From contig JAGOSP010000004.1 of assembly GCA_018062205.1 (NCBI GenBank), positions 198 to 64,197 on the forward strand: a DNA stretch of 64,000 nucleotides, in the 5' to 3' direction. Position 1 is the stretch's first letter, and each line of letters starts with the position of its first letter. Below, one piece after another: positions 5,195-53,925 of this stretch. The stretch comes from Candidatus Moraniibacteriota bacterium. Its GTDB lineage: Bacteria > Patescibacteriota > Minisyncoccia > Moranbacterales > UBA1568. Made by a program: the position numbers and the translations under genes. The notes below the pieces were generated by a model. It was not told the origin of the DNA and made no database searches. It saw only the letters and a program-made list of their open reading frames with translations.

Positions 5195-5277
5195 TTTTGT
5201 TGTTGGGATAAAAGTAGTACACAGTTGGGACAGTTTCTGCAGAGCTGTTCCCTTGAGTAATATTTTTTCAAAATATC

Positions 5278-7041: not shown

Positions 7042-7087
7042 AAATAGACTGTTTTAGTCGAGTCATGAGAAATTTTACACAAAATAT

Positions 7088-20232: not shown

Positions 20233-20478
20233 ATGTGTCTTGCGATACCCGGAAAAATTGAGGTGGTGGAAGGAAAAAAAGCGATGGTAAATTTCGGAGG
20301 AATCAAGCGTCGCGTTGATCTTTCCTTTCTCGATGATGCAGCCCAAGATGATTGGGTTTTGGTGCATGTTGGTTTTGCTCTTCAAAAAATAGATGAGGCA
20401 TCGGCACGAGAGGCGTACCATTTGCTTGCCGATACCCGTCCTGCTGATCTTGATGCAGAATTAAAAGCAATGTCATGA
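20233..20478 (+). CDS. hypC: [NiFe] hydrogenase maturation factor HypC
   Basis: Begins MCLAIPGKI (the essential Cys2). 81 aa. An extended -10 (TGgTACAAT) lies upstream at about 20203. Confidence 0.9.
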   Translation: MCLAIPGKIEVVEGKKAMVNFGGIKRRVDLSFLDDAAQDDWVLVHVGFALQKIDEASAREAYHLLADTRPADLDAELKAMS

Positions 20479-21494
20479 AAAGTCCGCTTCTTGCTGCCAT
20501 CGAGACTCTAGCGAAAGATATGGGTGAAGTGCGACTTATGGAAGTATGTGGCGGACATACGAACACGGTGATGCGTTTTGGTTTGCGGGAGGTCTTACCT
20601 TCGAATGTTCGTTTAATTTCTGGTCCTGGATGTCCAGTGTGTGTGACATCACAGCACGATATTGATTCCATGGTGGAATTGGCGCTTTCGGGGGTCCCAG
20701 TCGCAACGTATGGCGATATGATTAATGTGCCAGGGACAAAGATGAGCCTGGTAGATGCGCAAAACCTCGGAGCGGATGTGCGTATGGTGTATTCGATTGA
20801 TCAGATTATTGATGAGAAAGAGCGGGTATTTTTTGCCGTTGGGTTTGAGACAACGACACCGATGACTGCCAAGCTTCTCTCGGCGGGGATCAAAGTTTTT
20901 TGCGCACACAAGGTGATGCCGCCAGCCATGCGGGCGCTGACACAGGAAATGAATCTCGATGGTTTTATTGATCCGGGCCATGTTTCAGCTATTATCGGGA
21001 GCGATGTGTGGGGGAATATGGATATCCCATTGCCTCAAGTTATTTCTGGTTTTAAACCGGATCAACTCCTGCATGCAATTTTGACTTTGCTTGAACTGAT
21101 TAAGAATAAGGAAATACGGGTAGTAAATGACTATCCGGAGGTGGTGTTTCCGGGAGGCAATCCGATTGCGAAACGAATGATTAAAGAAACGTTGAAGCCA
21201 GTGGATTCTGAATGGCGAGGTATGGGAGTAATTCCTCTTTCAGGGCTAGCGCCGATCGATGAACGACTGGATGCCCGCCTGATTTATGCGGATCTTTTTA
21301 AGGATATCGTGAGCGTTGAACACCCCGAATGTCGCTGTGGAGAAATTGTTCGTGGCTTGGTTGAGCCAAGACAATGCCCTCTTTTTGGGACAGTTTGCAC
21401 GCCAGAGAATCCAAAGGGCGCTTGTATGGTGAGCGATTCTGAGGGAGCCTGTGCCATTGCTTATAAATATGGAAAAAGTTTAGCTGAAGTATGA
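20475..21494 (+). CDS. hypD: [NiFe] hydrogenase maturation factor HypD
   Basis: Motifs MEVCGGHT and GPGCPVCVT. Confidence 0.9.
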   Translation: MKSPLLAAIETLAKDMGEVRLMEVCGGHTNTVMRFGLREVLPSNVRLISGPGCPVCVTSQHDIDSMVELALSGVPVATYGDMINVPGTKMSLVDAQNLGADVRMVYSIDQIIDEKERVFFAVGFETTTPMTAKLLSAGIKVFCAHKVMPPAMRALTQEMNLDGFIDPGHVSAIIGSDVWGNMDIPLPQVISGFKPDQLLHAILTLLELIKNKEIRVVNDYPEVVFPGGNPIAKRMIKETLKPVDSEWRGMGVIPLSGLAPIDERLDARLIYADLFKDIVSVEHPECRCGEIVRGLVEPRQCPLFGTVCTPENPKGACMVSDSEGACAIAYKYGKSLAEV

Positions 21495-22519
21495 AGAAAA
21501 AAGATGAATCATGTCTGACGGGACAATGCCCGACACCGGTTGAACGCCCTTTGCATACGATTAAATTAAGTGAGGGGAGTGGTGGTCGTGAAATGCAAGC
21601 ACTTATTGGAACGCTCCGCGGACAGCTCGGCCCGACGAATAACTGGAAACACAGCGGGGATGATGGTGCGACCTTCTCTCTTGGAGATCAGCAATTGGTG
21701 TTTACCACGGATGCTTATGTGGTAACGCCGATTTTTTTTCCGGGAGGAAATATTGGGAAGATTGCATTTTGCGGTACGGTAAATGATTTAGCAGTGATGG
21801 GTGCTCGTCCGATTGGAATTTCTCTTTCACTGATTTTAGAGGAGGGATTTTCCAAGGAAGAATTTACGACCATTATCGACACCATCGGGAAACTGTCACG
21901 GGAAACTGGAATTCCAGTGGTGACTGGTGATACTAAGGTCGTTGAACGTGGGGGTATTGATAAAATCATCATCAATACGAGTGGCGTCGGATTGGCAGTG
22001 CGAGTACTCGAAGCACCACTCGAAGTGGGAGATGCAATAATTGTGTCTGGTGGTCTGGGCGAACATGGAGCAGCGCTACTTGCTCGACGCTTTGAACTGG
22101 AAACAACCCTGCAAACCGACAGCAAACCACTGCACGAAGAATTAGCAGTGATTGGTGACTATATCAAACAGGCGAAAGACATTACTCGGGGTGGGCTTGC
22201 CGCTATTCTGAATGAGCTTTCAGAGAAAAATTCGGTAGCTCTTACGGTTGAAGAAGCAGTTGTTCCATTGCATGACGAAGTTCGGGCTTTAACGGAGATG
22301 CTTGGTATTGATGTCTATAGTCTGGCGAGCGAAGGGCGCTTCGTTTGTATTGTGGCACCAGAACAGGAAAAGCGTGTACTTGAGATACTCCGCACCTTTA
22401 ATCCTTCGGCAGTGCAGATTGGAAGAGTGTCTGCTGGACGAGGAGTTTCCGTCCAGACAGTATATGGTAAGAAAATTCTCTCAATGCCTTCAGGGAATAT
22501 TGTTCCGCGGATTTGCTAG
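21491..22519 (+). CDS. hypE: [NiFe] hydrogenase maturation factor HypE
   Basis: AIR-synthase-like fold. N-terminal SGGREMQALI. C-terminal PRIC. Confidence 0.9.
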   Translation: MKKKDESCLTGQCPTPVERPLHTIKLSEGSGGREMQALIGTLRGQLGPTNNWKHSGDDGATFSLGDQQLVFTTDAYVVTPIFFPGGNIGKIAFCGTVNDLAVMGARPIGISLSLILEEGFSKEEFTTIIDTIGKLSRETGIPVVTGDTKVVERGGIDKIIINTSGVGLAVRVLEAPLEVGDAIIVSGGLGEHGAALLARRFELETTLQTDSKPLHEELAVIGDYIKQAKDITRGGLAAILNELSEKNSVALTVEEAVVPLHDEVRALTEMLGIDVYSLASEGRFVCIVAPEQEKRVLEILRTFNPSAVQIGRVSAGRGVSVQTVYGKKILSMPSGNIVPRIC

Positions 22520-24661
22520 ATATGCGGCGATTTGACCAAAACTGATGCCGCCATCACCAGAAGGAATTTCTTTGTTGACGAGAACGCCTTTGGAAAGAAA
22601 GTATTCAGTCATGATACGGTTATAAGCGCAGCCTCCGGCCCACACAATGGGCTTTTTTGTTTGGATGGCAATGGAATAAAGACCAATGGCTAGATATTTT
22701 TGTGCGGTGGCAGCAAGGCGGTATTTGTCCTCGTGTAAGTGTTCGATGAGGTAATGAAAGAGGGGAGTGGTTCGCAACACAGAATCTTTGATGACGGGGG
22801 TGATATCAAATGGCTCGGTAGAATATGCTTCTAGAAGCATGGCTGGTCGGCCATCATAAGTCCTCTCATCGCAGAGATTAAGGAGGGCAGCAGTCGCATC
22901 TAAAATTCGGCCGCAACTGGAGGTGAGAGGCGCATTGAATTTTTCGACAAATTGTTTTTCGAGGAGGGTGAGTTCGGAGGAAGAAAAGTGAGAATTGAGG
23001 AATGGACTACTCTCTTCAGGGGAAAGAAAGGACCGAAGAAGCGCATAGAGCATGCGGTGAGGAAATCGTGCGGCAGCATCACCACCAAGTTGCGGGTGGA
23101 GTTCGAGATGTCCAATGCGTGTGTGATTTTCAAATACCTCTCCACCCCAGAGCGTGCCATCATCTCCATAGCCAAGTCCGTCGCAAATGATAGCTGCAAA
23201 ATCGCTTAGCTGATGCTCGGCAGCAGCTGCATATGCATGGGCTCGGTGGTGTTGAATGGGAACGAGTGGAATGCTCAGTTGATTGGCAAGGTCGTGTCCA
23301 TAGAGAGACGTTTGATAATTTGGATGTGCATCACAAAGAATAGCCTGGGGCATGATATGAGCGTAAGAGAGGAAGCGATCAAGAGCAGCTCGATAGCGAT
23401 TGAAAGTGTCGGGATGAGTGGTGTTACCGATGTGCTGGGAGACAATAACACGCCCCTGTCCGTCATAGAGCGCGAATGTATTGTTCATTTCGGCACCAAG
23501 AGCGAGAAGGGGAGTTGTTATTGGCGAATGAATAATGATGGATTGAGGAACAAAGCCGCGGCTGCGTCGGATAAGTAAGGGTGTCTTGGCAATAACTTTG
23601 ACAACAGAATCATCGGTAGCATTGATAATCTCTCGATTATGGTCGAGTACCAGAGGGACAAATTGTTCTTCTCGCGTGGTGGTGAGTGGCGCGTGAGCCA
23701 GATTGGAAGAGGTGCAGATAAGCGGATAGGGATAATGTTCAAAGAGAAGGATATGGAGCGCAGTCGAAGCAAGCATAATGCCGAGAGTGTCGAGCTCGCT
23801 CACTTCTGGGGATTGGGTATTTTTTTTCACAAGAACGATAGGACGTTTTGGCGAAAGAAGTTGTTGCTCTTCTTCGAGAGTTGGACGAGAAATCATCTGC
23901 GCCATAGCGAGGTCTCGACAGAGAACTGCATAGGGTTTATGGATTCTTCCGGTAATGAGATTGAGCTTGTTTTTGGTTTTCTTCTGGGTATTACAGAATA
24001 AATGAAATCCACCAACTCCTTTGATGGCTACAACTTCTCCTTGAGAGAGCGCCTGCCCAACATGGTGGAGTATGTCTTGTTCAGCTGTTTTGGTTGAAGC
24101 AGCGCCATCTTGAAAGAGGGTGAGTTTTGGTCCACATGTGTGACAGGCGATGGTTTGAGCGTGGAATCTTCGACTTGTTGGATTGCGATACTCGTCACTA
24201 CAGTCAGGGCAGAGAGGAAAAATATGCATGGAGGTTGTTGCTCGGTCATAGGGACTTGATTTCGCCATAGTGAAGCGCGGACCGCAAAGAGTGCAGGTGA
24301 GAAAGAAATAATGGTGTCGGCGATTTTCTGGATTGCCAAGTTCTAAGAGGCAATCATCACACAAGAAAAAATCTGGTGGAATTTCAGAGAAACCTACGCC
24401 GGTGCTTGCGCGTATAGTGAAATCAGTACAGTGTTCCTTGGAGACTTCTTTCTGAATGGTATCAATACGCATGTGAGATGGAAGTTGATCAAGAATATTT
24501 TGAAAGGCTACGGTATCATTGACGACTACCACAACACCTTCTCCGGTGTTTTGCACGAAACCAAAAAGTTTCTCTTTGATACAGGCATTATAAATAAAAG
24601 GTCGGAATCCAACTCCCTGAACGATACCTTTAATAAGAAATTGGTGGAAAAGATGATTCAT
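22490..24661 (-). CDS. hypF: carbamoyltransferase HypF
   Basis: N-terminal acylphosphatase domain (VQGVGFRPF). Two Zn-finger-like CxxC pairs. YrdC and Kae1-like domains. Its 3' end overlaps hypE by 30 nt. Confidence 0.9.
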   Translation of the reverse strand: MNHLFHQFLIKGIVQGVGFRPFIYNACIKEKLFGFVQNTGEGVVVVVNDTVAFQNILDQLPSHMRIDTIQKEVSKEHCTDFTIRASTGVGFSEIPPDFFLCDDCLLELGNPENRRHHYFFLTCTLCGPRFTMAKSSPYDRATTSMHIFPLCPDCSDEYRNPTSRRFHAQTIACHTCGPKLTLFQDGAASTKTAEQDILHHVGQALSQGEVVAIKGVGGFHLFCNTQKKTKNKLNLITGRIHKPYAVLCRDLAMAQMISRPTLEEEQQLLSPKRPIVLVKKNTQSPEVSELDTLGIMLASTALHILLFEHYPYPLICTSSNLAHAPLTTTREEQFVPLVLDHNREIINATDDSVVKVIAKTPLLIRRSRGFVPQSIIIHSPITTPLLALGAEMNNTFALYDGQGRVIVSQHIGNTTHPDTFNRYRAALDRFLSYAHIMPQAILCDAHPNYQTSLYGHDLANQLSIPLVPIQHHRAHAYAAAAEHQLSDFAAIICDGLGYGDDGTLWGGEVFENHTRIGHLELHPQLGGDAAARFPHRMLYALLRSFLSPEESSPFLNSHFSSSELTLLEKQFVEKFNAPLTSSCGRILDATAALLNLCDERTYDGRPAMLLEAYSTEPFDITPVIKDSVLRTTPLFHYLIEHLHEDKYRLAATAQKYLAIGLYSIAIQTKKPIVWAGGCAYNRIMTEYFLSKGVLVNKEIPSGDGGISFGQIAAYLANPRNNIP

Positions 24662-28207: not shown

Positions 28208-28960
28208 ATGCATCTTCCGAATGAATTTTTAAACAATGGGACGGCGGCGGGTCTCGCGGGGATTGCCGCGCTTGCAGTTGGACTAGTAACGCAGAAGGTA
28301 CGGAGTACATTCTTTGAAAAAATCCCCATTTTGAAGGCTCGATTTGCAACCTTTCCTCATAATATGGGCGATGGCGCGAGTATGAGTATACAGCATCGAC
28401 TTTCAAAACTTGGGCAAGAAAAAATATGGCGCATGGCAGCAATTGGCTCGCTTATTTTTTCTGCGCAGATGGTTAACTTTTCCATTGGCGGTGGGATATC
28501 GGGGCATTTGCTTGGCGGAGTACTCGCCGCCCTTATTCTGGGACCTTTTGAAGCATTTCTGGTGATGAGTGTTGTGCTTGCGACACAGGCTTTTGTTTTC
28601 GCGGATGGCGGAGTTATCGCTCTGGGAGCGAATATTTTTAATATAGGCATCGTGGGCGCTCTCGGCGGGTATTCTTATTTTATATTTTTGACAAAAAATT
28701 CGAAGCAAATAAAAAAAATATTTCTTCGAAGTGCGTTTGTCGCCGCCTGGCTTTCGGTTGTTTTTTCTGCTGTTGCAGCTTCGCTTGAGATTGCCTGGTC
28801 GGGGACACAGTCGCTTCCAATCGTGTTGCCATCAATGATACTGACACATATAAGTATCGGTCTTGGTGAAGGTTTGATTACTATAGTGATTCTCTTTTTC
28901 TTGCAAAAAAAGAATTTTTCACTGGAAATCCTCAAGAGAAAAGATTCTTATGCGGAATAG
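28208..28960 (+). CDS. CbiM/NikM-family ECF-type cobalt/nickel transporter membrane component
   Basis: The N-terminus MHLPNEFL matches CbiM MH(I/L)PxGFL. Gly-rich TM helices. Confidence 0.65.
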   Translation: MHLPNEFLNNGTAAGLAGIAALAVGLVTQKVRSTFFEKIPILKARFATFPHNMGDGASMSIQHRLSKLGQEKIWRMAAIGSLIFSAQMVNFSIGGGISGHLLGGVLAALILGPFEAFLVMSVVLATQAFVFADGGVIALGANIFNIGIVGALGGYSYFIFLTKNSKQIKKIFLRSAFVAAWLSVVFSAVAASLEIAWSGTQSLPIVLPSMILTHISIGLGEGLITIVILFFLQKKNFSLEILKRKDSYAE

Positions 28961-29787: not shown

Positions 29788-30099
29788 ATGTCAAGAGTGG
29801 ATTTCGTTTTACCCGAAGAATTTACCCTGGATTGTACTGGGGTGAAAGTGATTCTTCGTATCGCACGTCGTCTCGCTGAAATCCGATTTGGAAATCAGAT
29901 GGCAACCAGATGTCCTTCTCAGATGGGGAAAGGTGGTGCTATTATCTTGCATCCAAAAACAGGTGCTCATCGGCTGTATCCACCAGGAAAAAAAGCTGAC
30001 CAACCGAAAGGGCATTGGCGATTGACCTCCTCGTGTGATGCTGTGCCGAAACTCCGATTGATAGTCGAAACCCTCTGTTGTTTCCCAGAGAGTATTTGA
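29788..30099 (+). CDS. hypothetical small protein (103 aa)
   Basis: ATG with RBS GAGAGGAAA. Followed by a terminator. No homology recognised. Confidence 0.35.
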   Translation: MSRVDFVLPEEFTLDCTGVKVILRIARRLAEIRFGNQMATRCPSQMGKGGAIILHPKTGAHRLYPPGKKADQPKGHWRLTSSCDAVPKLRLIVETLCCFPESI

Positions 30100-30118
30100 C
30101 TCGTTTTTTCGGCGTAAA

Positions 30119-30157
30119 ACCGCCCCCTGTTTGTTTTTTTCGGGGCGGCTTTTTTTA
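30119..30157 (+). terminator. Rho-independent terminator
   Basis: ACCGCCCC-loop-GGGGCGG followed by TTTTTTT. Confidence 0.55.
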
Positions 30158-30226
30158 TGCTTGTTTATGATATGATACAAATAATATCGAGAGCAGGGGG
30201 ATTTTTAGGTATAAATACCGAATCGT

Positions 30227-31672: not shown

Positions 31673-32233
31673 ATGTTTATGCAAAAAATTTCTCTTGCCC
31701 TCGCGCTCTCTCTCGCTTTAGTATCCGGGCTTATTGGTTTTGGAGTTGGATATGTTCTTACACCAGATTATGCCATGTATGATAAGAGCCGTATGGATCT
31801 CGGACGCCCCGATAGGACAATCGATTTGCGCTATATTAATGCGATGATTTCGCATCACCAAGGCGCGATTTTGCTTGCAAAACAAGCAGAGCAAAGTGAG
31901 CGGAAGGAAGTAAGGGACCTGGCTTTTGCTATTCAGAAAAGTGAACCAGAGTTGATTGCGGAATTGTATCGGTGGAAGAACGATTGGTATAACGATAAGC
32001 GCACGGTACCAGATCCTCTTGCGGCGAAACTTGGGGATTATAATGCTACTTTTGATTTACGATTTCTCAATGCACTAGTTGCTCATCATGAGAGCGGTAT
32101 CTTGATGACCAAGGAGATTCGAAATAAATCAAGCCGGAACGAAGTGTTGGACAATGCTGATGCAGTGGAGACATTTTTGAGTGATGGGCTGAATTTACTG
32201 AGAGGGTGGAGAAGTGAATGGTATAACCTGTAA
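31673..32233 (+). CDS. DUF305 domain protein (copper-resistance associated), membrane-anchored
   Basis: Duplicated motif RYINAMISHHQGAILLAK / RFLNALVAHHESGILMTK. Confidence 0.8.
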   Translation: MFMQKISLALALSLALVSGLIGFGVGYVLTPDYAMYDKSRMDLGRPDRTIDLRYINAMISHHQGAILLAKQAEQSERKEVRDLAFAIQKSEPELIAELYRWKNDWYNDKRTVPDPLAAKLGDYNATFDLRFLNALVAHHESGILMTKEIRNKSSRNEVLDNADAVETFLSDGLNLLRGWRSEWYNL

Positions 32234-32238
32234 ACCGT

Positions 32239-34491
32239 ATGATTACTCAAAAATTTCCTATCACAGGTATACACTGCGCCAGCTGCGCGGCTATCATCAC
32301 GAAGCATTTGACAAGAATGGATGGCGTTAATGATGTAGACGTAAACATTGCAACCGAACAAGCGAATATTGTTTTTGAGGAAAATCGAGTGAATCCAGAA
32401 TCGATGAATCAGATATTGGAACCTCTTGGTTATTCTCTTGTATTCGCAACCGATTCAGATAAAGAGATTGTTGCGGAAGAAAAAGATGAATTGTTTGTGG
32501 CGGAGCAAGCGAAAACATATTTTGTTTTACCACTCGCGATTGTTTTTTTTGTTCTGATGTTGTGGGAGATTGCCGCTCCAAGATACTTTTTTGTACCGAA
32601 TTTTCCGTTTCCGATGCAATTTTGGAGTATCTTTTCGCTCGCGATAGCAACTATGGTTTTCTTTTGGGCTGGAAGGCCGTTTTTATCTGGAGTGTGGCGT
32701 TTTATGCGATTCGGAGTAGCGGATATGAATACCCTGATTGGCATGGGAACATCAGTTGCATACTTTTATAGCACACTCATTGTGCTTCTTCCTTCTTTCC
32801 CGCTCTATTTCCGTCTACCAGAAGAAACATATTTTGACGTTGTAATCGTGGTTATTGGTTTTGTCACGTTAGGGAAATACCTTGAAGCTCGAGCTAAAGC
32901 AAAAACAGGTGATGCTATTGCTGAGCTTCTTCATCTTCAAGCAAAAACAGCGTTGGTAATTCGCAATGATGAAGAAAAAGAAATACCTATTTCTTCGGTA
33001 GTACCCGGTGATTTAGTTCGAGTTAAACCAGCGGGGAGAATCCCTGTTGATGGTAGAGTTATTGATGGATTTTCATATATAGATGAATCGATGCTCTCTG
33101 GAGAACCGATGCCAGTGGAAAAAAAGAAAGATGATTTAGTTCACGCTGGCACACTTAATACAACTGGTACATTTGTATTTTGCGTCACTGAGGTAGGCCA
33201 GACGACTTTGTTGGCACGTATCATTCGTATGGTTGAAGAGGCTCAAGGAAGTAAAGCTCCTATACAAGCGCTAGTTGATCGAATATCCGCTGTTTTTGTA
33301 CCAACGGTTTTGGGTTTTGCGGTCGTGATGGTCTGCCTCTGGCTCATTTTTGGAACACCTTTGTACGGTTTTTCCCAGGCTCTTTCTTTCGCGCTTCTAG
33401 CGTTTGTTGGCATACTCGTGATCGCTTGTCCTTGTGCGCTTGGATTAGCAACACCAACTTCGATTATTGTTGGAGTTGGCAAAGGGGCTCAAGAAGGGAT
33501 TCTGGTGAGAGATGCTGCGACACTTGAACAGTTGTCTCGGGCGCAAGTAATTGTTATGGATAAGACTGGAACGCTCACGAAAGGCGAACCGGAATTGGTT
33601 GCTATTCGTACTTCATTTGGGTATGAAGAAGAAAAAATTCTTGCTCTTGCGATTGCACTGGAAAATCATTCAGAACATCCGTTAGCGAAGGCTTTCATGG
33701 ATTTTGCCGCAAACAAGAATGTTGCTATTTCGTCGGTAGATAATTTTGAAGCCCAAAGAGGGAAGGGTGTTTCTGGTACCATATCGGGTCAGTCATACTA
33801 TCTAGGAAGCGTTGGATGGACGAAAGAACATGGATTATTAATGGATGAGGATACCATTAACCAGGAGGCTCGTGAAGGGAAGGTTCCTCTTATCCTCTGT
33901 TCTGATAAAGAAATCCTTGGAATATTTTTTGTTGCAGATCGCGTAAAACCAGAAGCGCATCAGTCAGTAGCTGAATTACAGAAGCTTGGTTTGCGGGTGA
34001 TAATGCTCACGGGAGATCATAGGCAAGTTGCTCAGTATATCGGAGAACAAGTAGGCATTCACGAAATTATCGCGGAAGCATTACCAGATGATAAGTTCGC
34101 AGTGATTAAGCGTCTACAGGGAGAAGGAAATATAGTGGTTATGGTGGGGGACGGCATTAATGATGCTCCAGCATTAGCTCAGGCAAATATTGGCATTGCT
34201 TTGGCAACGGGTACCGATGCGGCAATTGAATCGGCGGGTATTACTTTGTTGCATGGAGATATAGGGAAGTTGGTGAAAGCTGTTCGACTGTCACGGATGA
34301 CACTTTCTGGTATCAAGCAAAATCTTTTTCTTGCCTTTGTGTTTAATGTTGTTGGTATTCCACTCGCTGGCGGAATTTTTTATCCTCTGTTTGGCTGGTT
34401 CTTGAGTCCGGCATTCGCGGGGCTTGCGATGGCTTTCTCAAGTGTTACTGTGGTAAGTAATGCACTTCGTCTTAAAACGAAAAAATTGTAA
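32239..34491 (+). CDS. copA: copper-translocating P1B-type ATPase
   Basis: N-terminal HMA GIHCASCA. Motifs CPC (ACPCALGLATP), DKTGTLT and GDGINDAPAL. Confidence 0.9.
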   Translation: MITQKFPITGIHCASCAAIITKHLTRMDGVNDVDVNIATEQANIVFEENRVNPESMNQILEPLGYSLVFATDSDKEIVAEEKDELFVAEQAKTYFVLPLAIVFFVLMLWEIAAPRYFFVPNFPFPMQFWSIFSLAIATMVFFWAGRPFLSGVWRFMRFGVADMNTLIGMGTSVAYFYSTLIVLLPSFPLYFRLPEETYFDVVIVVIGFVTLGKYLEARAKAKTGDAIAELLHLQAKTALVIRNDEEKEIPISSVVPGDLVRVKPAGRIPVDGRVIDGFSYIDESMLSGEPMPVEKKKDDLVHAGTLNTTGTFVFCVTEVGQTTLLARIIRMVEEAQGSKAPIQALVDRISAVFVPTVLGFAVVMVCLWLIFGTPLYGFSQALSFALLAFVGILVIACPCALGLATPTSIIVGVGKGAQEGILVRDAATLEQLSRAQVIVMDKTGTLTKGEPELVAIRTSFGYEEEKILALAIALENHSEHPLAKAFMDFAANKNVAISSVDNFEAQRGKGVSGTISGQSYYLGSVGWTKEHGLLMDEDTINQEAREGKVPLILCSDKEILGIFFVADRVKPEAHQSVAELQKLGLRVIMLTGDHRQVAQYIGEQVGIHEIIAEALPDDKFAVIKRLQGEGNIVVMVGDGINDAPALAQANIGIALATGTDAAIESAGITLLHGDIGKLVKAVRLSRMTLSGIKQNLFLAFVFNVVGIPLAGGIFYPLFGWFLSPAFAGLAMAFSSVTVVSNALRLKTKKL

Positions 34492-34495
34492 CCGT

Positions 34496-35533
34496 ATGGA
34501 AAATACTACGAATATACAAACGCGCGTATTCTATATCACTGGTATGCATTGCAAAGCCTGTATCCTTCTAACTGAGGATGAACTTTGTGGACATCCAAAA
34601 GTTATTTCTGCTAAATCAAGCCTCAAAACCAGTTCTGTAGAAGTACAAGGAGATTTTGGATCAATGTCCCAAGAACTCCTTGTTAAGGAACTTGACGCTC
34701 TTCTCATAAAACATGGATATCATCTCTCGATTGAACGACCTCAGGAAAAACGCAATTGGCTTGATTTCCGCGTTGCAATTCCGCTGACACTCCTTTTTAT
34801 TGGATTTTTTGTTTTCCTTCAAAAAATAGGCTTAGTGAATTTATTGAATGTAAATGAAGTATCGTATGGAGCTGCTTTTCTGATTGGAATTATCGCATCA
34901 CTTTCCTCATGTTTAGCGGTAGTTGGAGGGCTTGCTCTTTCAGTTTCGGCAAGTTTCGCTAAAAATGGTGATGCCATCAAGCCACAAATCCTATTTCACG
35001 TAGGTCGTCTAGTAAGCTTTTTCTTTCTTGGTGGAATGATCGGTGCGCTAGGTGCACATTTCGCTTTGAGTGTAACAGGAACCTTTATTTTGAGCTTACT
35101 CACAGGAATAATTATGTTGTTACTTGGGCTGAATTTACTGGATATTTTTTCTTGGACGAAAGTGGTTCAATTGGGGATTCCAAGAAGCATTGCGGATAGA
35201 GCGTATCGGCTGAAAGATATACAGCATCGTTTTGTACCATTTTTACTTGGTGGGGTTACGTTCTTTCTCCCTTGTGGCTTTACTCAGTCTATGCAGGTCT
35301 ACACGCTTTCCACTGGCAGTTTTTTTTCCGGAGCGCTGACGATGACTGCTTTTGCTTTAGGGACAATGCCAGTATTATTGCTTCTCAGTTTTGGTTCGCT
35401 TGGGATTCGTTCGGGCGTTCCTTTGAGCATCTTTTTCAAAACAGCCGGATTGATCGTGATTGCTTTTGCACTTCTTGCTATGTATAGTAGCCTGGTTGCT
35501 ATTGGTATCGTTCCTCCGATTTTTAATCTCTAA
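34496..35533 (+). CDS. HMA-domain fused to polytopic permease (DsbD_2/TauE-like) with Cys-containing TM helices
   Basis: N-terminal YITGMHCKAC (an HMA-like segment). Downstream TM helices carry SSCLAV and PCGFTQ. Starts 4 nt after the copA stop. Confidence 0.6.
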   Translation: MENTTNIQTRVFYITGMHCKACILLTEDELCGHPKVISAKSSLKTSSVEVQGDFGSMSQELLVKELDALLIKHGYHLSIERPQEKRNWLDFRVAIPLTLLFIGFFVFLQKIGLVNLLNVNEVSYGAAFLIGIIASLSSCLAVVGGLALSVSASFAKNGDAIKPQILFHVGRLVSFFFLGGMIGALGAHFALSVTGTFILSLLTGIIMLLLGLNLLDIFSWTKVVQLGIPRSIADRAYRLKDIQHRFVPFLLGGVTFFLPCGFTQSMQVYTLSTGSFFSGALTMTAFALGTMPVLLLLSFGSLGIRSGVPLSIFFKTAGLIVIAFALLAMYSSLVAIGIVPPIFNL

Positions 35534-35552
35534 TATCAAAGCATTGAATACT

Positions 35553-35954
35553 ATGAAAATATTTTTTTGGATCCTTTTTGGAATTACCTTGTTGGTTGGC
35601 GGATACTTAATGAGAGAGCTCTTTTTCTCAGAAAAAAATCAATCCCGCTTAAGTGAAGAAGCAGGTGCGAACAATGTGACAGAAAGCGACGGAAAGCAAT
35701 ATATTGAAATACGCGCAAAGGGTGGTTATTTGCCACGTGTTAGTGTGGCAAAGGCTGAAATGCCAACAATACTTCGTTTTCGTACGGAGAGTACTTTCGA
35801 CTGTTCTTCTCAGGTGCTTATTCCGAGTTTGAATATAAGCCAGGTACTATCTTCCTCCGGAGTGACTGAGACAAATCTCGGTGTCCTTAAACCAGGAACG
35901 ATTCAGGGTTTGTGTAGTATGGGGATGTATTCATTTGAAATCCAGGTTGAATAG
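35553..35954 (+). CDS. cupredoxin-like domain protein (membrane-anchored)
   Basis: N-terminal TM. YIEIRAKGGYLPRVSVAKAEMPTILRFRTEST, then C..C..M, resembles Cupredoxin_1-type proteins common in copA operons. Confidence 0.55.
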   Translation: MKIFFWILFGITLLVGGYLMRELFFSEKNQSRLSEEAGANNVTESDGKQYIEIRAKGGYLPRVSVAKAEMPTILRFRTESTFDCSSQVLIPSLNISQVLSSSGVTETNLGVLKPGTIQGLCSMGMYSFEIQVE

Positions 35955-48256: not shown

Positions 48257-48351
48257 TTTATTGCAGAGGTGCGTTTGAGAGAGATACTTTTGAATAAGAG
48301 TAAACAGGGAAAAATGAATACGTGGCAAGAAATGAAAAAATACGATACACT

Positions 48352-48795
48352 ATGTGGAGTAAAATACTGAAAAAATGTGTGTCTATGGAAGCAACGAAAG
48401 CAAATTTTGATGTACGAGTGAAACGCTCGAGCGCCGGATTGGGACTCTATGCCTTTGAGGTAATTAAGAAAGGAGCAACGATTATTGAGTACGTTGGGAA
48501 TCGTATTCCTCGGGAACGAGGAGATTCTTTACAGAATCGATATATTTTTAATGTGAATTCTCGTATTGATATTGATGGAAGTCCACGCTGGAATACGGCT
48601 CGTTATGCTAATCATTCTTGTCGACCGAATTGTGAAGCGGTGGATCGACGGGGGCATATTTTTATTGTAGCGCGTCGTGGAATCAAGATCGGTGAAGAGC
48701 TCACATATGATTATGGCAAGGAATATTTTGAAGATATTATCAAAAAAGAAGGTTGTCGCTGCGTGAAGTGTACGGAGAACCGAATCAAAGTCTGA
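48352..48795 (+). CDS. SET-domain protein lysine methyltransferase-like
   Basis: SET signatures RYANHSCRPNC and ELTYDYG, plus a post-SET CxC..C (CRCVKC). The start is uncertain (GTG 48322, ATG 48352, or ATG 48385). Confidence 0.7.
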   Translation: MWSKILKKCVSMEATKANFDVRVKRSSAGLGLYAFEVIKKGATIIEYVGNRIPRERGDSLQNRYIFNVNSRIDIDGSPRWNTARYANHSCRPNCEAVDRRGHIFIVARRGIKIGEELTYDYGKEYFEDIIKKEGCRCVKCTENRIKV

Positions 48796-48824
48796 GAGAC
48801 TTTTTTGTGAAGCTCTGATAGAAT

Positions 48825-48852
48825 AGAGAAGTAATTTACTTCTCTCTTTTTG
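48825..48852 (+). terminator. AT-rich hairpin terminator after the SET gene
   Basis: AGAGAAGTA-ATT-TACTTCTCT followed by CTTTTT. Confidence 0.4.
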
Positions 48853-48862
48853 TATTTAGCGT

Positions 48863-49378
48863 ATGTCTCCTCAGAAAAAATTGCGTATCGGGTGGTTTTC
48901 TTTTTCCTGTTGTGAAGATAGCACCGTGATGTTTGCGGAATACCTAAATGATCACTATCAGGAATGGCTTCCATTACTTGATATTCGGTATGCGAAAGTG
49001 CTTCAGTCAAAGAATGTCATTGATCAAATGGATGTGGCTTTTGTTGAGGGTGCGATTACTGCCCCTGAGCAGGAAGCGAAGTTGCTTGATGTCCGATCAA
49101 AGGCGACCAAGCTGGTTGCCATCGGAGCTTGTGCCAATATGGGAATGCCATCGTGTCAGCGCAATCAATTCCCTCCTGAAGTCGAAGAGCAGATTCACTT
49201 TCTCCTTGAGCGCTTTCATTATGGAGAAAAAGCAAAGAAGCTCGACGAACTCGTGACTGTGGATGCACATGTGAATGGCTGTCCCATGCAAGAAGAAGTA
49301 TTTATCAAAGTTTTAAATGAAATGCTTATCGAGTTTGGTGTTATCAAACCTCAACCGGAAGCAGAATCAGCCGCCTAA
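48863..49378 (+). CDS. [NiFe] hydrogenase small subunit (NuoB/HoxY-like, single proximal cluster)
   Basis: 171 aa. The N-terminal WFSFSCCEDS is a tandem-Cys as in NuoB CCxxE. GACANMGMPSC and the GCP motif (VNGCPMQ) are present. Confidence 0.65.
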   Translation: MSPQKKLRIGWFSFSCCEDSTVMFAEYLNDHYQEWLPLLDIRYAKVLQSKNVIDQMDVAFVEGAITAPEQEAKLLDVRSKATKLVAIGACANMGMPSCQRNQFPPEVEEQIHFLLERFHYGEKAKKLDELVTVDAHVNGCPMQEEVFIKVLNEMLIEFGVIKPQPEAESAA

Positions 49379-49411
49379 GAGACAACACTATTTTTTTCTA
49401 ACAATCATCCT

Positions 49412-50713
49412 ATGCACCAAGTATCAGAAATGAGCGCATTCAGTATTAAAGAAATTACCAAGATTGAAGGATCAGCAGGACTTGAGGTGCTTGTTGAGGA
49501 TGGCAAGGTGACATCTGTGCAGTTTGCTATCAATGAATACAAGCGCTTCTTTACTCAGGCGATGGTGGGCAAGTCTATTATGGCGATTCCACAAATGCTG
49601 GCACGTATTTGCGGTACCTGTTCCAATGCGCATCTTATGGCAAGTATTGAAGCGGTCGAGAAGGGCTTTGGACTCCAGCCAACCGAACAAACGAAACTGC
49701 TCCGCACATTAGCGTATCATGGTTTGATTATTCGTGATCATGCGCTCCATCTGTATATCTTTGTGGCACCGGATTTTTTTGGGAAAGATTCTTTGCTTGC
49801 TTTTGATGAAAATGATCCAGCACAGCATGATGTTTTGCATGATGCATTTGCTATCAAATCAGTTGGGAATCACCTTTCGATTTTAGCAGGCGGACGAAGT
49901 GTCCATGCGCCTTTTCTTATGCCAGGTGGTTTTGCCAAAGTTCCTGAGAAGGAGGAAATGGAGAAATGTCTGGAAGAACTCAAAGCTATTCGGCCAACGA
50001 TACTCCGTTCAATTGAGTTATTCATGAATTGCCCGTTTTCTTTTATTCGTGAAACCAACTATATTGGTCTGAAGTCCACCCCATTTTCGTATTTCGAAGG
50101 AGAACTCTGGGATATGAATGGAAAAATCTGTGATGAGAGTGGATACCGCAGTCATCTTGAGCACGTTGTCATTCCCTATTCACAGGCTTCCGGATACACG
50201 TTTGATGGGAAGGTATTTCGAGTTGGTGCACTTGCTCGGGTCAATCTCAACAAAGATGCTTTTCATCCGAATACACGGCGCGATGCAGCCGAAGCACTCA
50301 AGCGTTTCCCGTCCCATGACGTTTACGATAATTGTTTGGCGCAAGCGATTGCTATTCTTCATTCAGTTGATGAATCGATTGATATTCTCTCCACAGCAAC
50401 TTTTGCGAAAGAACCTTTGCAACAAATAGTACCAAGGGAAACAGTGTGTGTCGGTGTGGTGGAAGCACCGCGCGGTACGCTGTATCATAAATATGAGACG
50501 GATGCGAAGGGTGTTGTTACTCATGGCGAAGTGATTGTACCGACTGGGCAGAATCAAATTACGGTCGAGCAAGATCTCGGAAAATTTATTCAGGACAACC
50601 TTGCTCTTGATCGTGATGCTCTCGGATTGGAGTGTGAAAAAATCATTCGCGCCTATGACCCTTGCATGAGCTGTGCCTCACACTTCCTCAAACTCAAAAT
50701 CCGCGAGATCTGA
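49412..50713 (+). CDS. [NiFe] hydrogenase large subunit (group 3-like)
   Basis: N-terminal RICGTCSNAH (L1, RxCGxCxxxH). C-terminal DPCMSCASH (L2) with a 9-residue tail consistent with C-terminal processing. Confidence 0.85.
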   Translation: MHQVSEMSAFSIKEITKIEGSAGLEVLVEDGKVTSVQFAINEYKRFFTQAMVGKSIMAIPQMLARICGTCSNAHLMASIEAVEKGFGLQPTEQTKLLRTLAYHGLIIRDHALHLYIFVAPDFFGKDSLLAFDENDPAQHDVLHDAFAIKSVGNHLSILAGGRSVHAPFLMPGGFAKVPEKEEMEKCLEELKAIRPTILRSIELFMNCPFSFIRETNYIGLKSTPFSYFEGELWDMNGKICDESGYRSHLEHVVIPYSQASGYTFDGKVFRVGALARVNLNKDAFHPNTRRDAAEALKRFPSHDVYDNCLAQAIAILHSVDESIDILSTATFAKEPLQQIVPRETVCVGVVEAPRGTLYHKYETDAKGVVTHGEVIVPTGQNQITVEQDLGKFIQDNLALDRDALGLECEKIIRAYDPCMSCASHFLKLKIREI

Positions 50714-50749
50714 GCAAAGGAAAAGGCAGAGAGAAATTCTTTTATTTAA

Positions 50750-50780
50750 GGCCGCTTCCTAAAGCGGTCTTGAATTTTTG
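50750..50780 (+). terminator. Rho-independent terminator after the hydrogenase genes
   Basis: GGCCGCTT-CCTA-AAGCGGTC followed by a TTGAATTTTT T-run. Confidence 0.45.
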
Positions 50781-50857
50781 GAAAATTGTACTGTAAAAAT
50801 GCTTCTGTTTGATTCTCTTAAAGAATCAGCGTACGCTGGTGATTAAGAAAATGAACA

Positions 50858-52636
50858 GTGTCTGCATTGAGAATAATGAGGATGTCCAAGTTACAGAAAA
50901 TAGGGAGGTTTTTAGAATGCCATTCGATAGGAGTTTTTGCTGTGACCATGGCAATGTCCGTCTTCCTTCTTTTTGATCCATTGGGTCAGCGGGCTTGGGA
51001 TACTTTTTTTACTAATAATGAAAAAGTGTTGGAGATTTATTGGCAAACGTTGACCCTTCTTTTGGTGATATTGATTCCGGTTACAGGGGCTGTTATTGGG
51101 AAATTAGATAAAAAATTTCCTGAGTTTGGAGCGAGAATTTTTTTTCAGATAGTGGCGCGTGTGAGACAGTTTTGGATACTGATTCCATTTAGCTTCCTTC
51201 TTTTTTTCGCAAGAGTTCCAGTGCAAAATATGCCGCCAGAAGGCATTTCAGTAAATCTCGAAGTTTTGAGGATTATCCATTACCTTTTGTTCGTTTTATG
51301 GTGTTTTCTCTTTTGGGGATTTTTTGAAATCCTGAGAAAGTCGGTTGCGCTTTTCGTGGACTTAGGTGATTTACAAAACGAAGTATTCTATAGGCACCTT
51401 TCGGAGTATAGTCGGCAACAGAAAACAATGAGTGATGATGAAAATGAGGGACCAGCATGGAAACTACTTTGGGACGGTATTGACGTAAAAAATGATAAGT
51501 GGCACCGAAAATTTCTGCTTCTCTTTTGGAAGCGACAGGAAGAATTGATTGGGAATAAGCAATATCTTCTGGCCACTACATTGCTGGAGAGTTTTTCGCA
51601 ACGGTATCTGACTTTTGGTGACGGTCAGAAGCAAATCGATGTTGCCCGACAGATGAATGCACGGAAACGCTGGCTTTGGTTTTGCGAAAAACAGATGAAT
51701 GATAAAACAGAAAATCCTTATGCCATTGCTATTCGACTGTTAGATATTCATTTTTCCACATGGCGAAATCTTGAGGAAATCAAAAATCCTGGGAATGGAA
51801 ATAATATGGACCCTAAAAAACGGGGCAGGTTGAGTACTTTGCAGCGCCTCGTACGTAGCATGCTCGAAACATTGTTTCGTGATGAGCTTGGTAAGACTGA
51901 TGATTATTACGACTCTTTTTTTCGTTGTCTCACGGGATTCTTCGATACCGTTGCTCCAGATAAATCCACTTTGTCCCCAAAAAAGTATCAAGAATATCTA
52001 GAGAGTCTTCCTGTCTACCGGCCAGTTTTTGAGGCTGCTTATAACTCTCATCTTTCCAATTATGAACCACATGCGGAAGGGTCGGGCTTCCCAAATCAGT
52101 GGAGGGTGCTAGAGGCGTGCTTGGAGCAGACTAATAGTATAGACAGTGTACAGCGTCGTGTGTGGCTCGAACAGTTCTGTACATGGTCTCGAGACCACAT
52201 TGATCACGGGAAGAAAGAGTGGGACAACGCTTTAGATGGAGCACTCAAGATGTTGTTTCCGGAGGCATACGCACCCTGGATGGCTTTCGCATTCGCTTAC
52301 AGAGCGCTTGCCTTTGGAAAGAGTCAAATAGCAGGACGTTGTTCCTGGAACCGAAATTTTGGGTATGATTCTCTTCTTATTGATATGTCTGATATGCCAG
52401 AAGAGGGGTGGGAACAAAAACACGATGAACGAATGATGAAAGTGACGCGGGAGCGTCAGACAATAGCAGTAACAATTATTCAGAAGTTCAGATTTTTTGG
52501 TAAACCAGGCCAAATAACAAATTTGATAGCGGAATTAGAAAGCCTTTCAGGAACGCTTTCTGGTGATTCGGAGAGTGAGAATAATCGTCGAGAAATACTC
52601 GAAATGCTTCAGGAAATAGCGAAATCTTCCCCCTGA
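50858..52636 (+). CDS. large hypothetical protein with N-terminal multi-TM region and alpha-helical cytoplasmic domain
   Basis: 592 aa. Four or five N-terminal hydrophobic helices, then an Arg/Glu/Trp-rich helical region. No known motif recognised. Confidence 0.5.
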   Translation: MSALRIMRMSKLQKIGRFLECHSIGVFAVTMAMSVFLLFDPLGQRAWDTFFTNNEKVLEIYWQTLTLLLVILIPVTGAVIGKLDKKFPEFGARIFFQIVARVRQFWILIPFSFLLFFARVPVQNMPPEGISVNLEVLRIIHYLLFVLWCFLFWGFFEILRKSVALFVDLGDLQNEVFYRHLSEYSRQQKTMSDDENEGPAWKLLWDGIDVKNDKWHRKFLLLFWKRQEELIGNKQYLLATTLLESFSQRYLTFGDGQKQIDVARQMNARKRWLWFCEKQMNDKTENPYAIAIRLLDIHFSTWRNLEEIKNPGNGNNMDPKKRGRLSTLQRLVRSMLETLFRDELGKTDDYYDSFFRCLTGFFDTVAPDKSTLSPKKYQEYLESLPVYRPVFEAAYNSHLSNYEPHAEGSGFPNQWRVLEACLEQTNSIDSVQRRVWLEQFCTWSRDHIDHGKKEWDNALDGALKMLFPEAYAPWMAFAFAYRALAFGKSQIAGRCSWNRNFGYDSLLIDMSDMPEEGWEQKHDERMMKVTRERQTIAVTIIQKFRFFGKPGQITNLIAELESLSGTLSGDSESENNRREILEMLQEIAKSSP

Positions 52637-52799
52637 GAATCGCTTCAAGATATCGACAGCAGAATGATACTTTGAGTATGATTTCTCACCACAACGCCTC
52701 AGTCCAAGTTTTTTTGTTCTTGGGGAAGCGATTTGATGTACCTTGTTAGAAAAAACAAAATAATCATACATGCCTGTCTCGCTCATAAAAAACTAGACT

Positions 52800-52833
52800 G
52801 TATCATAATAAGACGGCCGTCTGATTATGATAC
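52800..52833. repeat. 34-bp palindrome copy A (GTATCATAATAAGACGG|CCGTCTGATTATGATAC)
   Basis: A 17-bp arm inverted repeat with one mismatch, 77 nt upstream of the PaaX-like gene start. Confidence 0.7.
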
Positions 52834-52909
52834 AATGAGAAAGGTGCGAGTAGAGATTTGAAAGACGAAATAGATGAAATTATATTGAAATTCATAACGG
52901 GAAAGAAGT

Positions 52910-53485
52910 ATGTATAAACTTGGTCCGGTACAACAGAAAGTTTTATTAGTACTCGCAGGAGTAGTTATTCTCGGGACAGAGACATCTTCACTGCGGTATT
53001 ATCAGAAATTGAGAATGCTTTACCGTGGATGGAAAAAGATTGATCAGCGTAACTTTAATCGTTCCGTTCATCGATTAAGTGAACAGAAATTGGTGCAAGA
53101 AGTTTCGCTTGCCGATGGATCATTTCGATTAGTATTGACCAAAGAAGGAGCGAGGCAGGCAAAAATTCAAGCTCTATTTGGATCAAAAATACATTTTAAG
53201 CGTCCGAAGCAGTGGGATAAAAAATGGCGTATCGTTCTGTTTGATATCCCAGAAAAGGAGAGAGGGTTTCGTACGGTATTACGGGAACATTTACAGGAAC
53301 TCCATTTTTTTAAATTGCAGCAGAGTGTGTTTGTTTCACCTTTCCCGTGCGAAAAACCAATTATGGAACTTGTAGCACTGTATGGAGCGGAAGTTCATGT
53401 GAGGATTATGACTGCTCATTGGATTGATAATGAAACAAAACTTAAAAAACATTTCTTTAAGCCACCGAAGAAAAAAGTATCATAA
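52910..53485 (+). CDS. PaaX-family transcriptional regulator-like protein (wHTH + PaaX_C)
   Basis: WDKKWRIVLFDIPEKERGFRTVLREHLQELHFFKLQQSVFVSP matches the PaaX C-domain pattern W..W..V.Y.VPE..R..R..LR..L..LGF..L....WVSP. The N-terminus is wHTH-like. Confidence 0.55.
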   Translation: MYKLGPVQQKVLLVLAGVVILGTETSSLRYYQKLRMLYRGWKKIDQRNFNRSVHRLSEQKLVQEVSLADGSFRLVLTKEGARQAKIQALFGSKIHFKRPKQWDKKWRIVLFDIPEKERGFRTVLREHLQELHFFKLQQSVFVSPFPCEKPIMELVALYGAEVHVRIMTAHWIDNETKLKKHFFKPPKKKVS

Positions 53486-53556: not shown

Positions 53557-53925
53557 CTAGAGGAGGGCGATGATGGCAGGAAGGACGGTTTTTGCATCAC
53601 TTCCCATGGGGACGCCGATGATGCGGATATGAATATTTGGTTGGAGTTTTTTGATAAGCAGAAGATAGGAGGAGAGATCAAAATCATGTGTGGTGGCACG
53701 TGCGGCCGTGGCTTCAATTTCATCGAGCGTGATATCTCGTACAGCTTTTAATCCGTCTACAGTGTCGAGAGCAATAAAATTTTCATTTTCTTCTGGGAGG
53801 TCAAGTTCGTTCGGGTCAGTAAAGAGGAAGGTATGTTGCGGGCAGGCCTCCTGAAGACGCGGTAAAAGCACTACGGGTAAGGCGTCAAAAGGAAGATCGG
53901 GATTGCCAAAAATATGAATCAGCAT
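53557..53925 (-). CDS. hydrogenase maturation endopeptidase (HycI/HybD/HoxW-like)
   Basis: 122 aa. The pattern MLIHIFGNPDLPFDALPVVLLPRL ... HDFDLSSYLL ... IIGVPMG is typical of the family. Confidence 0.7.
   Translation of the reverse strand: MLIHIFGNPDLPFDALPVVLLPRLQEACPQHTFLFTDPNELDLPEENENFIALDTVDGLKAVRDITLDEIEATAARATTHDFDLSSYLLLIKKLQPNIHIRIIGVPMGSDAKTVLPAIIALL

Follow-up and report, generated by a model that had tools for sequence, protein, structure and literature searches.

A two-gene [NiFe] hydrogenase of the hyd2 type, with a single-cluster small subunit, in a Candidatus Moraniibacteriota genome

When the two core subunits of a [NiFe] hydrogenase are encoded with no electron-transfer subunit beside them, where do the electrons go? 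The question is raised by a gene pair from a Candidatus Moraniibacteriota bacterium (NCBI GenBank assembly GCA_018062205.1), which lies in a 64,000-nucleotide stretch of contig JAGOSP010000004.1 (positions 198 to 64,197 of the forward strand); this whole stretch is called the window here, and all positions are counted within it. The gene for a 171-residue small subunit (48863..49378, + strand; an open reading frame (ORF) with a Pfam Oxidored_q6 match, 1e-17) is followed after 33 bp, in the same direction, by the gene for a 433-residue large subunit (49412..50713, + strand; ORF with a Pfam NiFeSe_Hases match, 3.8e-27). An earlier note on this DNA had read the pair as a minimal two-gene hydrogenase with both NiFe-binding boxes, a NuoB-like small subunit that keeps only the proximal cluster and carries two adjacent cysteines, and no partner subunits next to it, and had called the composition atypical. 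The ORFs, the Pfam matches, and the four nickel-iron cysteines bear out the two-gene hydrogenase. Judged by its sequence, the locus very probably encodes a functional member of the hyd2 group, and we lean towards the view that this enzyme exchanges electrons in trans with a soluble low-potential partner and acts as a reversible redox valve.

Is this a new kind of hydrogenase? It is not, as hyd2 was described in 2020, when the group 3b-related hydrogenases of the candidate phyla radiation (CPR) were divided into hyd1 and hyd2 (Jaffe et al. 2020, BMC Biol 18:69, PMC7304191). In hyd2 the small subunit is consistently truncated, with a mean length of 164 residues, no beta or gamma subunit is co-located, the genomic context is variable, and "its function remains uncertain"; the consistent lack of beta and gamma subunits was called unclear. 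Flavoproteins (PF07992) and a small Fe-S protein family were reported near a subset of hyd2 loci, as were HypC-like neighbors. The present locus has in common with the clade a Patescibacterium host, a 3b-related large subunit, a truncated small subunit, and the absence of beta and gamma genes beside it. It differs in that no DUF6390, EamA, or HypC gene adjoins the hydrogenase, that the hypCDEF genes are 25–28 kb away, and that the protease gene is displaced. We assign the locus to hyd2 because nothing essential departs from the published description. Its composition is atypical next to that of textbook 3b enzymes, as the earlier note had it, but is the rule in the hyd2 clade, which extends over at least 501 species genomes.

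The main text of the hyd2 study (PMC7304191) makes no mention of a tandem-cysteine motif, of a protease/DUF6390/EamA synteny, of fusions, or of members in DPANN archaea. Newly seen here are the conserved CC motif, a protease-DUF6390-EamA-HypC cluster, and fusions to or adjacencies with candidate partners in a minority of loci. The sole later paper on the subunits of CPR 3b enzymes that our literature search returned deals with their composition and models a four-subunit form (PMC10811913); none was found that characterizes hyd2.

The large subunit carries the boxes RICGTCSNAH (Cys67, Cys70) and DPCMSCASH (Cys418, Cys421, His424), and His424 is followed by a nine-residue C-terminal extension, FLKLKIREI, of the type cut off by a maturation endopeptidase. 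The glutamate of the EG element and the arginine of the APRG element are both kept in the alignment to the alpha subunit of Pyrococcus furiosus soluble hydrogenase I (SHI). Which group does it belong to? Among NCBIfam models the scores were 247.6 bits for ShyA, 211 for HydA, 145 for VhuA, and 105 for FrhA; among PDB sequences, P. furiosus SHI alpha (202 bits) and the T. kodakarensis enzyme (198) were followed by Mvh (156) and Hox (107), with Frh also among the followers. Ranked by score, group 3b is the nearest, 3c comes next (145–156 bits), and 3a and 3d come after it. As these scores are far under the NCBIfam equivalog cut-offs (700–880), the protein is taken to be a divergent 3b relative. 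All 120 homologues listed have 415–475 residues and 54–94% identity. Where a source gives one of them a name, it is a general one (nickel-dependent hydrogenase large subunit, sulfhydrogenase alpha, F420-reducing hydrogenase alpha), and those hosts that are named are Patescibacteria or unclassified metagenome-assembled genomes (MAGs). The family adjoins short small subunits in RIFCSP/GW2011 CPR genomes, which are of the kind used in the hyd2 study (PMC7304191).

How much of a 3b small subunit is left? Residues 6–156 of the small subunit align to residues 3–152 of the 261-residue SHI delta subunit, its best match among solved structures (45 bits), and the whole C-terminal domain of SHI delta, with the medial and distal clusters, is missing. 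Ordinary 3b small subunits have 240–265 residues, 12–15 cysteines, and extra CxxC groups near positions 165 and 203; a group-3b delta subunit is recognized by some 250–260 residues and by proximal, medial, and distal clusters, which are not what the 171-residue protein presents. The NCBIfam models HydD, FrhG, VhuG, and ShyD match it over their N-terminal halves only. Foldseek searches with an AlphaFold2 (AF2) model (predicted local distance difference test, pLDDT, 88) placed it closest to the N-terminal domain of SHI delta (query-normalized TM-score, TMq, 0.70–0.72), to HoxY (0.71), and to HydS of HydABCSL (0.69). By its sequence and predicted fold, the protein is a truncated group-3b delta subunit. 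In 72 related loci the small subunit has a mean of 170 residues and a range of 158–195 by our own ORF calls.

The cysteines that remain are those of FSCCEDS (C16 and C17), C90 (in GACA), and C140 (in GCP), and in an alignment of 25 sequences with identity down to 41% they are the sole invariant ones. Four invariant cysteines are sufficient for one [4Fe-4S] cluster, and we infer that C16/C17, C90, and C140 are the ligands of a single proximal site. A small subunit with the proximal cluster only and with tandem cysteines, as proposed earlier, is thereby upheld; one cluster is not unusual in itself, HoxY and HydS being of the same size class. Could the tandem pair be a sequencing or assembly artefact of CxxC, a possibility for which the earlier note had allowed? 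No point was found in its favor. Each of the 109 full-length homologue clusters, drawn from independent assemblies, has the pair, as do most of the unbiased 50%-identity representatives; since the pair is conserved in all full-length clusters and C16 and C17 are invariant, an artefact is excluded.

In the HMMER register, C17 stands opposite the first cysteine of the canonical SCYGC motif and S20 opposite the second, so that C16 is the extra residue. The same register is obtained against the family members that keep GCEGC. As both GCEGC and CCxxC variants occur among relatives, the CC pair most likely arose within the 3b lineage, independently of NuoB, to judge by these sequences. The motif variants observed in relatives are CSEDS (P0243, P0250) and the canonical GCEGC (P0248, P0260), both rare, and CCxxC (P0280, P0282). 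In the CSEDS variants the canonical cysteine is gone and the extra one is kept, which leaves three cysteines with a glutamate or aspartate nearby, and the CCxxC of some full-length 3b subunits is a plausible evolutionary intermediate.

The NuoB-like label of the earlier note is apt for the motif. Cluster N2 of NuoB/PSST/Nqo6 is likewise a single [4Fe-4S] cluster with an adjacent cysteine pair and cysteines in GxCA and GCP motifs, and by eye the local F-x-x-S-C-C is similar. At the level of sequence and fold the label does not hold, as hydrogenase small subunits are far more similar. In NCBIfam, the NuoB models cover only residues 124–153, with E values of 4e-4 or worse; NuoB/PSST chains reach TMq of 0.52–0.58 in Foldseek and rank under all group-3 and group-1 small subunits, and SHI delta, HoxY, and HydS come ahead in that order. 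In an hhalign comparison with E. coli NuoB, residues 43–154 are covered and the CC region is outside. The partner here is a genuine Ni-Fe large subunit and not NuoD, which is without the Ni-Fe cysteines; there is no membrane arm, and Pfam scans of the ORFs found no nuo genes in the window. Taking sequence and predicted fold together, the likeness to NuoB is an analogy of motif and cluster content and not a relationship.

SHI (group 3b, HydBGDA; PDB 9nez, 9e15, 9e1j) is the closest solved relative of both the large and the small subunit (202 and 45 bits), sharing with them the Ni-Fe motifs and the fold of the small subunit's N-terminal domain. It differs in its 261-residue delta subunit, which has three clusters and a CxxC (SCYGC), and in being a tetramer with NADPH-linked beta and gamma subunits. 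HoxY (group 3d; 189 residues, 178 of them resolved in 5xf9_C) and HydS (of NiFe-HydABCSL; 7t2r_E, 179 residues) are similar to our small subunit in size, in having the proximal cluster only, and in fold (TMq 0.69–0.71), and from them electrons exit directly to a partner protein. They always occur, however, in multi-subunit complexes whose other members (HoxFU, HydABC) belong to the same operon, and here there are none; the large subunit here is also 3b-like and not 3d-like as in the HoxY system.

These comparisons bear on the possibility that the enzyme is after all a conventional tetrameric group-3b (sulf)hydrogenase, the beta/gamma diaphorase of which is encoded elsewhere in the genome. Such an arrangement would suit the large subunit, which is most similar to 3b alpha; some 80 kb of the genome was visible, and the hyd2 study itself left the consistent lack of beta and gamma unclear. 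In 3b enzymes, though, the proximal cluster is wired to beta by the C-terminal two-cluster domain, and it is precisely this domain that is missing. Truncation and absence of adjacent beta and gamma genes recur across 84 related loci, in which we called ORFs and clustered them into families, and also in PMC7304191, and the partners that do occur in relatives are of other types. We therefore regard a tetramer with a distant diaphorase as very unlikely.

Both genes belong to large families. Homologue clusters of the small subunit number more than 1500, nearly all of 160–180 residues, and those of the large subunit more than 4800. A scan of one genome per GTDB species turned up the small subunit in no fewer than 501 species genomes. 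These cover many lineages of Patescibacteria (Moranii-, Gottesman-, Chisholm-, Uhr-, Azam-, Jackson-, Kerfeld-, Lloyd-, and Komeilibacteria) and DPANN archaea (Woese-, Pace-, Micr-, and Nanoarchaeota). Among the relatives that have a name, the nearest are MAGs labeled Candidatus Moraniibacteriota or Patescibacteria group. An identical large subunit was read on 24 contigs, and 30 blocks of the sequence collection list it. A family so large and so conserved points to selection on a working enzyme.

Does the genome provide what is needed to mature it? The earlier note had placed hypC, hypD, hypE, and a convergent hypF far from the hydrogenase and a protease on its other side, and this split layout was recovered (hypCDEF at 20233–24661). 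The hypC gene (20233..20478, + strand; N-terminus MCLAIPGK), for a maturation chaperone, is an ORF matched in tblastn by HypC proteins from related loci; it is followed by hypD (20475..21494, + strand; Pfam HypD, E = 1.2e-111) and hypE (21491..22519, + strand; Pfam AIRS and AIRS_C). The start of hypE overlaps the stop of hypD, which suggests translational coupling. The carbamoyltransferase gene hypF (22490..24661, − strand) is convergent with hypE and has the Pfam domains Acylphosphatase, zf-HYPF, Sua5_yciO_yrdC, HypF_C, and HypF_C_2. The group lies 25–28 kb from the hydrogenase.

The protease had to be recognized by its predicted fold. The 122-residue ORF (53557..53925, − strand) is below threshold for Pfam HycI (E = 0.12, 12.7 bits against a cut-off of 23), and a profile search of 20 sequences against PDB sequences gave no match. 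Its AF2 model (pLDDT 86.6) has as its best Foldseek match T. kodakarensis HybD (5ija; E 5.5e-5, TMq 0.64), with E. coli HycI (2e85/2kml) next. D14, D54, and H80 are invariant and correspond to the metal-binding acidic/acidic/His triad of the HybD family, and a DPANN orthologue carries a precomputed weak HycI match. This protein family is also the most conserved neighbor of the hydrogenase, being present in 55 of 84 loci and standing at position +1 on the opposite strand in 41. On its modeled structure we accept the ORF as a predicted minimal maturation endopeptidase of the HybD/HycI-like type.

Nickel delivery is less complete. As the earlier note had reported, hypA and hypB were not found in the window, nor were they found in the 7–8 kb past each of its ends. 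A CbiM/NikM-type metal-uptake component (28208..28960, + strand; N-terminus MHLPNE; Pfam CbiM, E = 4.4e-46) is encoded 3.5 kb from hypF, and nickel for the hydrogenase may enter through it as an alternative route. Shortly after the CbiM gene comes a half-size (128-residue) EamA/SMR-like ORF (29297–29683, − strand), which together with a neighboring 123-residue ORF (29809–30180, − strand) may form a split or paired small transporter.

Might the locus instead be a relic, degenerating or non-catalytic, such as a pseudo-hydrogenase or a scaffold comparable to the CPR Ehr proteins, which lost their metal ligands? A reduced host genome would fit, as would the failure to find hypA, hypB, or a partner and the 2.8-kb insertion that parts the hydrogenase from its protease gene. 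Yet the four Ni-Fe cysteines of the large subunit, its EG glutamate and APRG arginine, and the four cysteines of the cluster are all intact and invariant. The hypCDEF and protease genes are intact as well, and the same large subunit recurs unchanged on its 24 contigs, with strong conservation across phyla. A relic is thus highly improbable.

The hydrogenase pair also seems to be transcribed on its own. A terminator-like hairpin with a U-run (48818..48858, + strand; −12 kcal/mol, z = −3.6 by RNA folding; placed at 48825–48845 by a consensus scan) marks the 5′ boundary, in the interval between the upstream SET-domain gene and the small-subunit gene. Another, with a 14-bp stem and a U-run, follows 30 nt past the large-subunit stop and marks the 3′ boundary (50742..50782, + strand; −18 kcal/mol, z = −4.7, with 0 of 200 shuffles equally stable). 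Hairpins on both sides suggest that the two genes are a self-contained bicistronic unit.

What, then, receives or supplies the electrons? The search covered Pfam domains in about 55 window ORFs (those of at least 110 residues), and in the window no ferredoxin, flavoprotein, HydB/HydG, HoxFU, MvhD, FrhB, diaphorase, or membrane hydrogenase subunit was found, in agreement with the earlier note. An Fe-S motif scan of all window ORFs of at least 35 residues gave no candidate other than HypF. Nor did tblastn with the ferredoxin, FNR-like, ferredoxin-reductase-like, thioredoxin reductase (TrxR)-like, NuoF-like, EamA, and DUF6390 proteins of relatives find a match in the window. Partner subunits just beyond the window, which the earlier note had considered, were looked for in the 7–8 kb past both ends; that DNA holds only transporters, proteases, and tRNA-modification, NUDIX, and Fic genes. 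About 80 kb around the hydrogenase genes was inspected in total. An upstream 260-residue protein with a CEDCGVC motif was considered as an Fe-S partner and rejected, as its third cysteine is not conserved in orthologues.

The neighborhoods of the relatives offer some clues. The conserved order there is small-large, with protease, DUF6390, EamA transporter, and HypC on the opposite strand. Convergent examples are seen at L028:8896-11184 (−) and L040:11776-14036 (−). DUF6390 proteins have about 250 residues and a weak HupF/HypC-like C-terminus, EamA proteins about 305, and genes for them occur in 53 of the 84 loci; the window, unlike most hyd2 loci, has no tblastn match to either. EamA may be a nickel importer. 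We know of no role described for the hydrogenase-linked DUF6390 and EamA genes. The small- and large-subunit genes of some DPANN loci are parted by one further gene (a GNAT acetyltransferase in L004:2827-5134; L038 and L062 are similar).

Candidate redox partners are near 16 of the 84 loci, or 10 of the 46 that have at least 5 kb on both sides. A ferredoxin-reductase-like protein (about 410 residues, Pyr_redox_2 and Reductase_C) is encoded in nine, directly upstream of the small subunit in four, and three loci (L064, L066, L068) have an operon of ferredoxin, ferredoxin reductase, small subunit, and large subunit, the ferredoxin being a 93-residue Fer4_15 protein. In one locus the ferredoxin-reductase-like protein is fused to the small subunit (581 residues, L081:8741-10486). 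A TrxR-like domain (Pyr_redox_2 with a CVNC motif) is fused to the small subunit in P0244 (500 residues, L089:8001-9503), within a complete DPANN hyd2 cluster that also has the large subunit, protease, EamA, and HypC; separate TrxR-like genes adjoin hyd2 in L052 and L056. FNR-like proteins (FAD_binding_6/NAD_binding_1) are found in at least five loci, and in L004 besides. A NuoF-like domain is fused to the small subunit in P0250 (702 residues, JGI 3300072015), with genes for a large subunit, a protease-like protein, and DUF6390 beside it. In each of the three fusions the small subunit comes after the flavoprotein part, and a hyd2 large subunit is encoded alongside.

How would such an enzyme work? 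We picture a cytosolic two-subunit [NiFe] hydrogenase of the CPR/DPANN hyd2 lineage. Going by gene content, HypCDEF would build and insert the Fe(CN)2CO center, nickel would probably enter via the CbiM-type transporter, and the HybD/HycI-like protease would cut off the nine residues past His424. H2 would be split or formed at a Ni-Fe site with Cys67, Cys70, Cys418, and Cys421 as ligands, and electrons would pass by way of the one [4Fe-4S] cluster on C16-C17, C90, and C140. Since the medial/distal cluster domain is absent, this cluster should be near the surface and should itself be the point where electrons leave or enter. The operons with ferredoxin and ferredoxin reductase and the flavoprotein fusions of relatives suggest a port that is used by a small ferredoxin or directly by a flavin. 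In the present genome the partner, encoded elsewhere, would most likely be a small ferredoxin, or else a ferredoxin-reducing enzyme such as pyruvate:ferredoxin oxidoreductase (PFOR) in direct contact, with a flavoprotein as the alternative; we put the chances of this particular class of partner at about even. The alpha-delta heterodimer engineered from SHI has high activity, makes no use of NADPH, and takes electrons straight from PFOR (Hopkins et al. 2011, PMC3200332). A Patescibacterium that ferments and does not respire would most probably use the enzyme as a reversible valve through which excess reductant leaves as H2.

Several points weigh against a ferredoxin-linked valve. The SHI heterodimer, unlike the present small subunit, keeps all three clusters in its delta subunit. 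None of the DNA inspected in this genome contains an identified partner, so that ferredoxin, PFOR, and flavoprotein alike are assumed. The partner cannot be read off the relatives either, because only 16 of the 84 loci have one and these are of five different kinds. The insertion of nickel goes unexplained, since hypA and hypB were not found. Lastly, the direction of catalysis is not fixed by the sequence.

With the direction left free, the enzyme might instead be an H2-uptake module, in which the single cluster would feed the FAD of a TrxR-like, ferredoxin-reductase-like, or FNR-like protein encoded at an unlinked site. Thiol repair and biosynthesis would in this way receive reduced thioredoxin or NAD(P)H in a host with few other sources of reductant. 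The TrxR-like fusion of L089, the TrxR-like genes beside hyd2 in L052 and L056, and the ferredoxin-reductase-like fusion of L081 all speak for such a flow. By eye the P0244 fusion is without the HRRxxxR motif for the NADPH phosphate and resembles ferredoxin-dependent flavin thioredoxin reductases, a reading that comes from inspection alone; ferredoxin-dependent, pyridine-nucleotide-independent TrxR-like flavoenzymes are a precedent for a flow from Fe-S cluster to FAD to dithiol (PMC8154056, PMC12796991). The window moreover has a thioredoxin/DsbD-AhpC-Trx/MsrAB cluster at 4.6–8.3 kb, but those thiol-repair genes are 40 kb away from the hydrogenase and look periplasm-facing (DsbD_TM fusion). 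Partners of this sort accompany a minority of loci, and no TrxR-, ferredoxin-reductase-, FNR-, or NuoF-like gene was found in the window (tblastn) or in the 7–8 kb past its ends. We consider H2 uptake of this kind the main alternative to the ferredoxin-linked valve, though an unlikely one.

Is there a wider principle behind these different neighbors? One could imagine hyd2 as a free-standing, plug-in H2 module, with the tandem-cysteine cluster as a direct port to interchangeable partners, namely ferredoxin and ferredoxin-reductase-like, TrxR-like, FNR-like, and NuoF-like flavoproteins. We put this forward as a tentative idea, short of probable, and the same caution covers all that follows from it. 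If it were true, some DPANN and CPR lineages would have gained an H2:thioredoxin or H2:NAD(P) oxidoreductase by fusion of a flavoprotein to the small subunit, and in stand-alone versions such as the present one the coupling would be straight to ferredoxin or PFOR. The CC pair, convergent with that of complex I cluster N2, would tune the cluster for its exposed role, and DUF6390 and EamA would be a lineage-specific maturation and nickel-supply set in place of HypA/HypB.

A large part of microbial diversity belongs to the Patescibacteria and the DPANN archaea, which are without respiratory chains and have few known routes for redox balancing; hyd2 is one of the few widespread redox catalysts in these groups. 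With two subunits and one Fe-S cluster it is the smallest natural [NiFe] hydrogenase architecture, which makes it an attractive engineering scaffold. The locus itself adds no new category. It is the clues at the level of the family, that is, the invariant tandem cysteines, the Rosetta-stone flavoprotein fusions, the operons of ferredoxin, reductase, small subunit, and large subunit, and the conserved protease/DUF6390/EamA/HypC cluster, that make the question of the partner directly testable.

The immediate flanks of the gene pair are as the earlier note had given them. Directly upstream is a gene for a SET-domain (lysine methyltransferase-like) protein (48322..48795; Pfam), which is kept in this place only in the five closest related loci (L009–L013). 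Downstream of the large subunit is a gene for a 592-residue protein with about four N-terminal hydrophobic (transmembrane) segments (50858..52636), for which there was neither a Pfam match nor a homologue among the 84 related loci; it is followed by a gene for a PaaX_M/Cas2-like protein (52910..53485). Both are missing in a 95%-identical relative (L010), in which the protease gene is directly convergent with the large subunit, and because of this absence we take the 2.8 kb from 50858 to 53485, by which the protease is displaced here, to be a strain-level insertion. In another 95%-identical relative (L009:553-~2100) the large-subunit ORF has just 320 residues and is followed by unrelated genes; a truncation, a frameshift, or an assembly join is possible.

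Some other features of the window may be mentioned. The thiol-repair cluster (4646–8335) is made up of a thioredoxin, a DsbD_TM-AhpC/TSA-Thioredoxin_10 fusion (587 residues), and an MsrA-MsrB fusion (415 residues). Metal-handling genes are scattered at 8356–8727, 11227–11652 (− strand), and 31673–35954, and encode a MerT-like protein, two cupredoxin-domain proteins, a DUF305 protein, a CopA-type P-type ATPase with an HMA domain, and an HMA-DsbD_2 protein; the blue-copper proteins are notable in a host that is expected to be without respiration. The GC skew is positive in all 2-kb bins of positions 1–64000 (0.08–0.30) and the + strand holds most of the genes, which is consistent with the whole window being on one leading-strand replichore.

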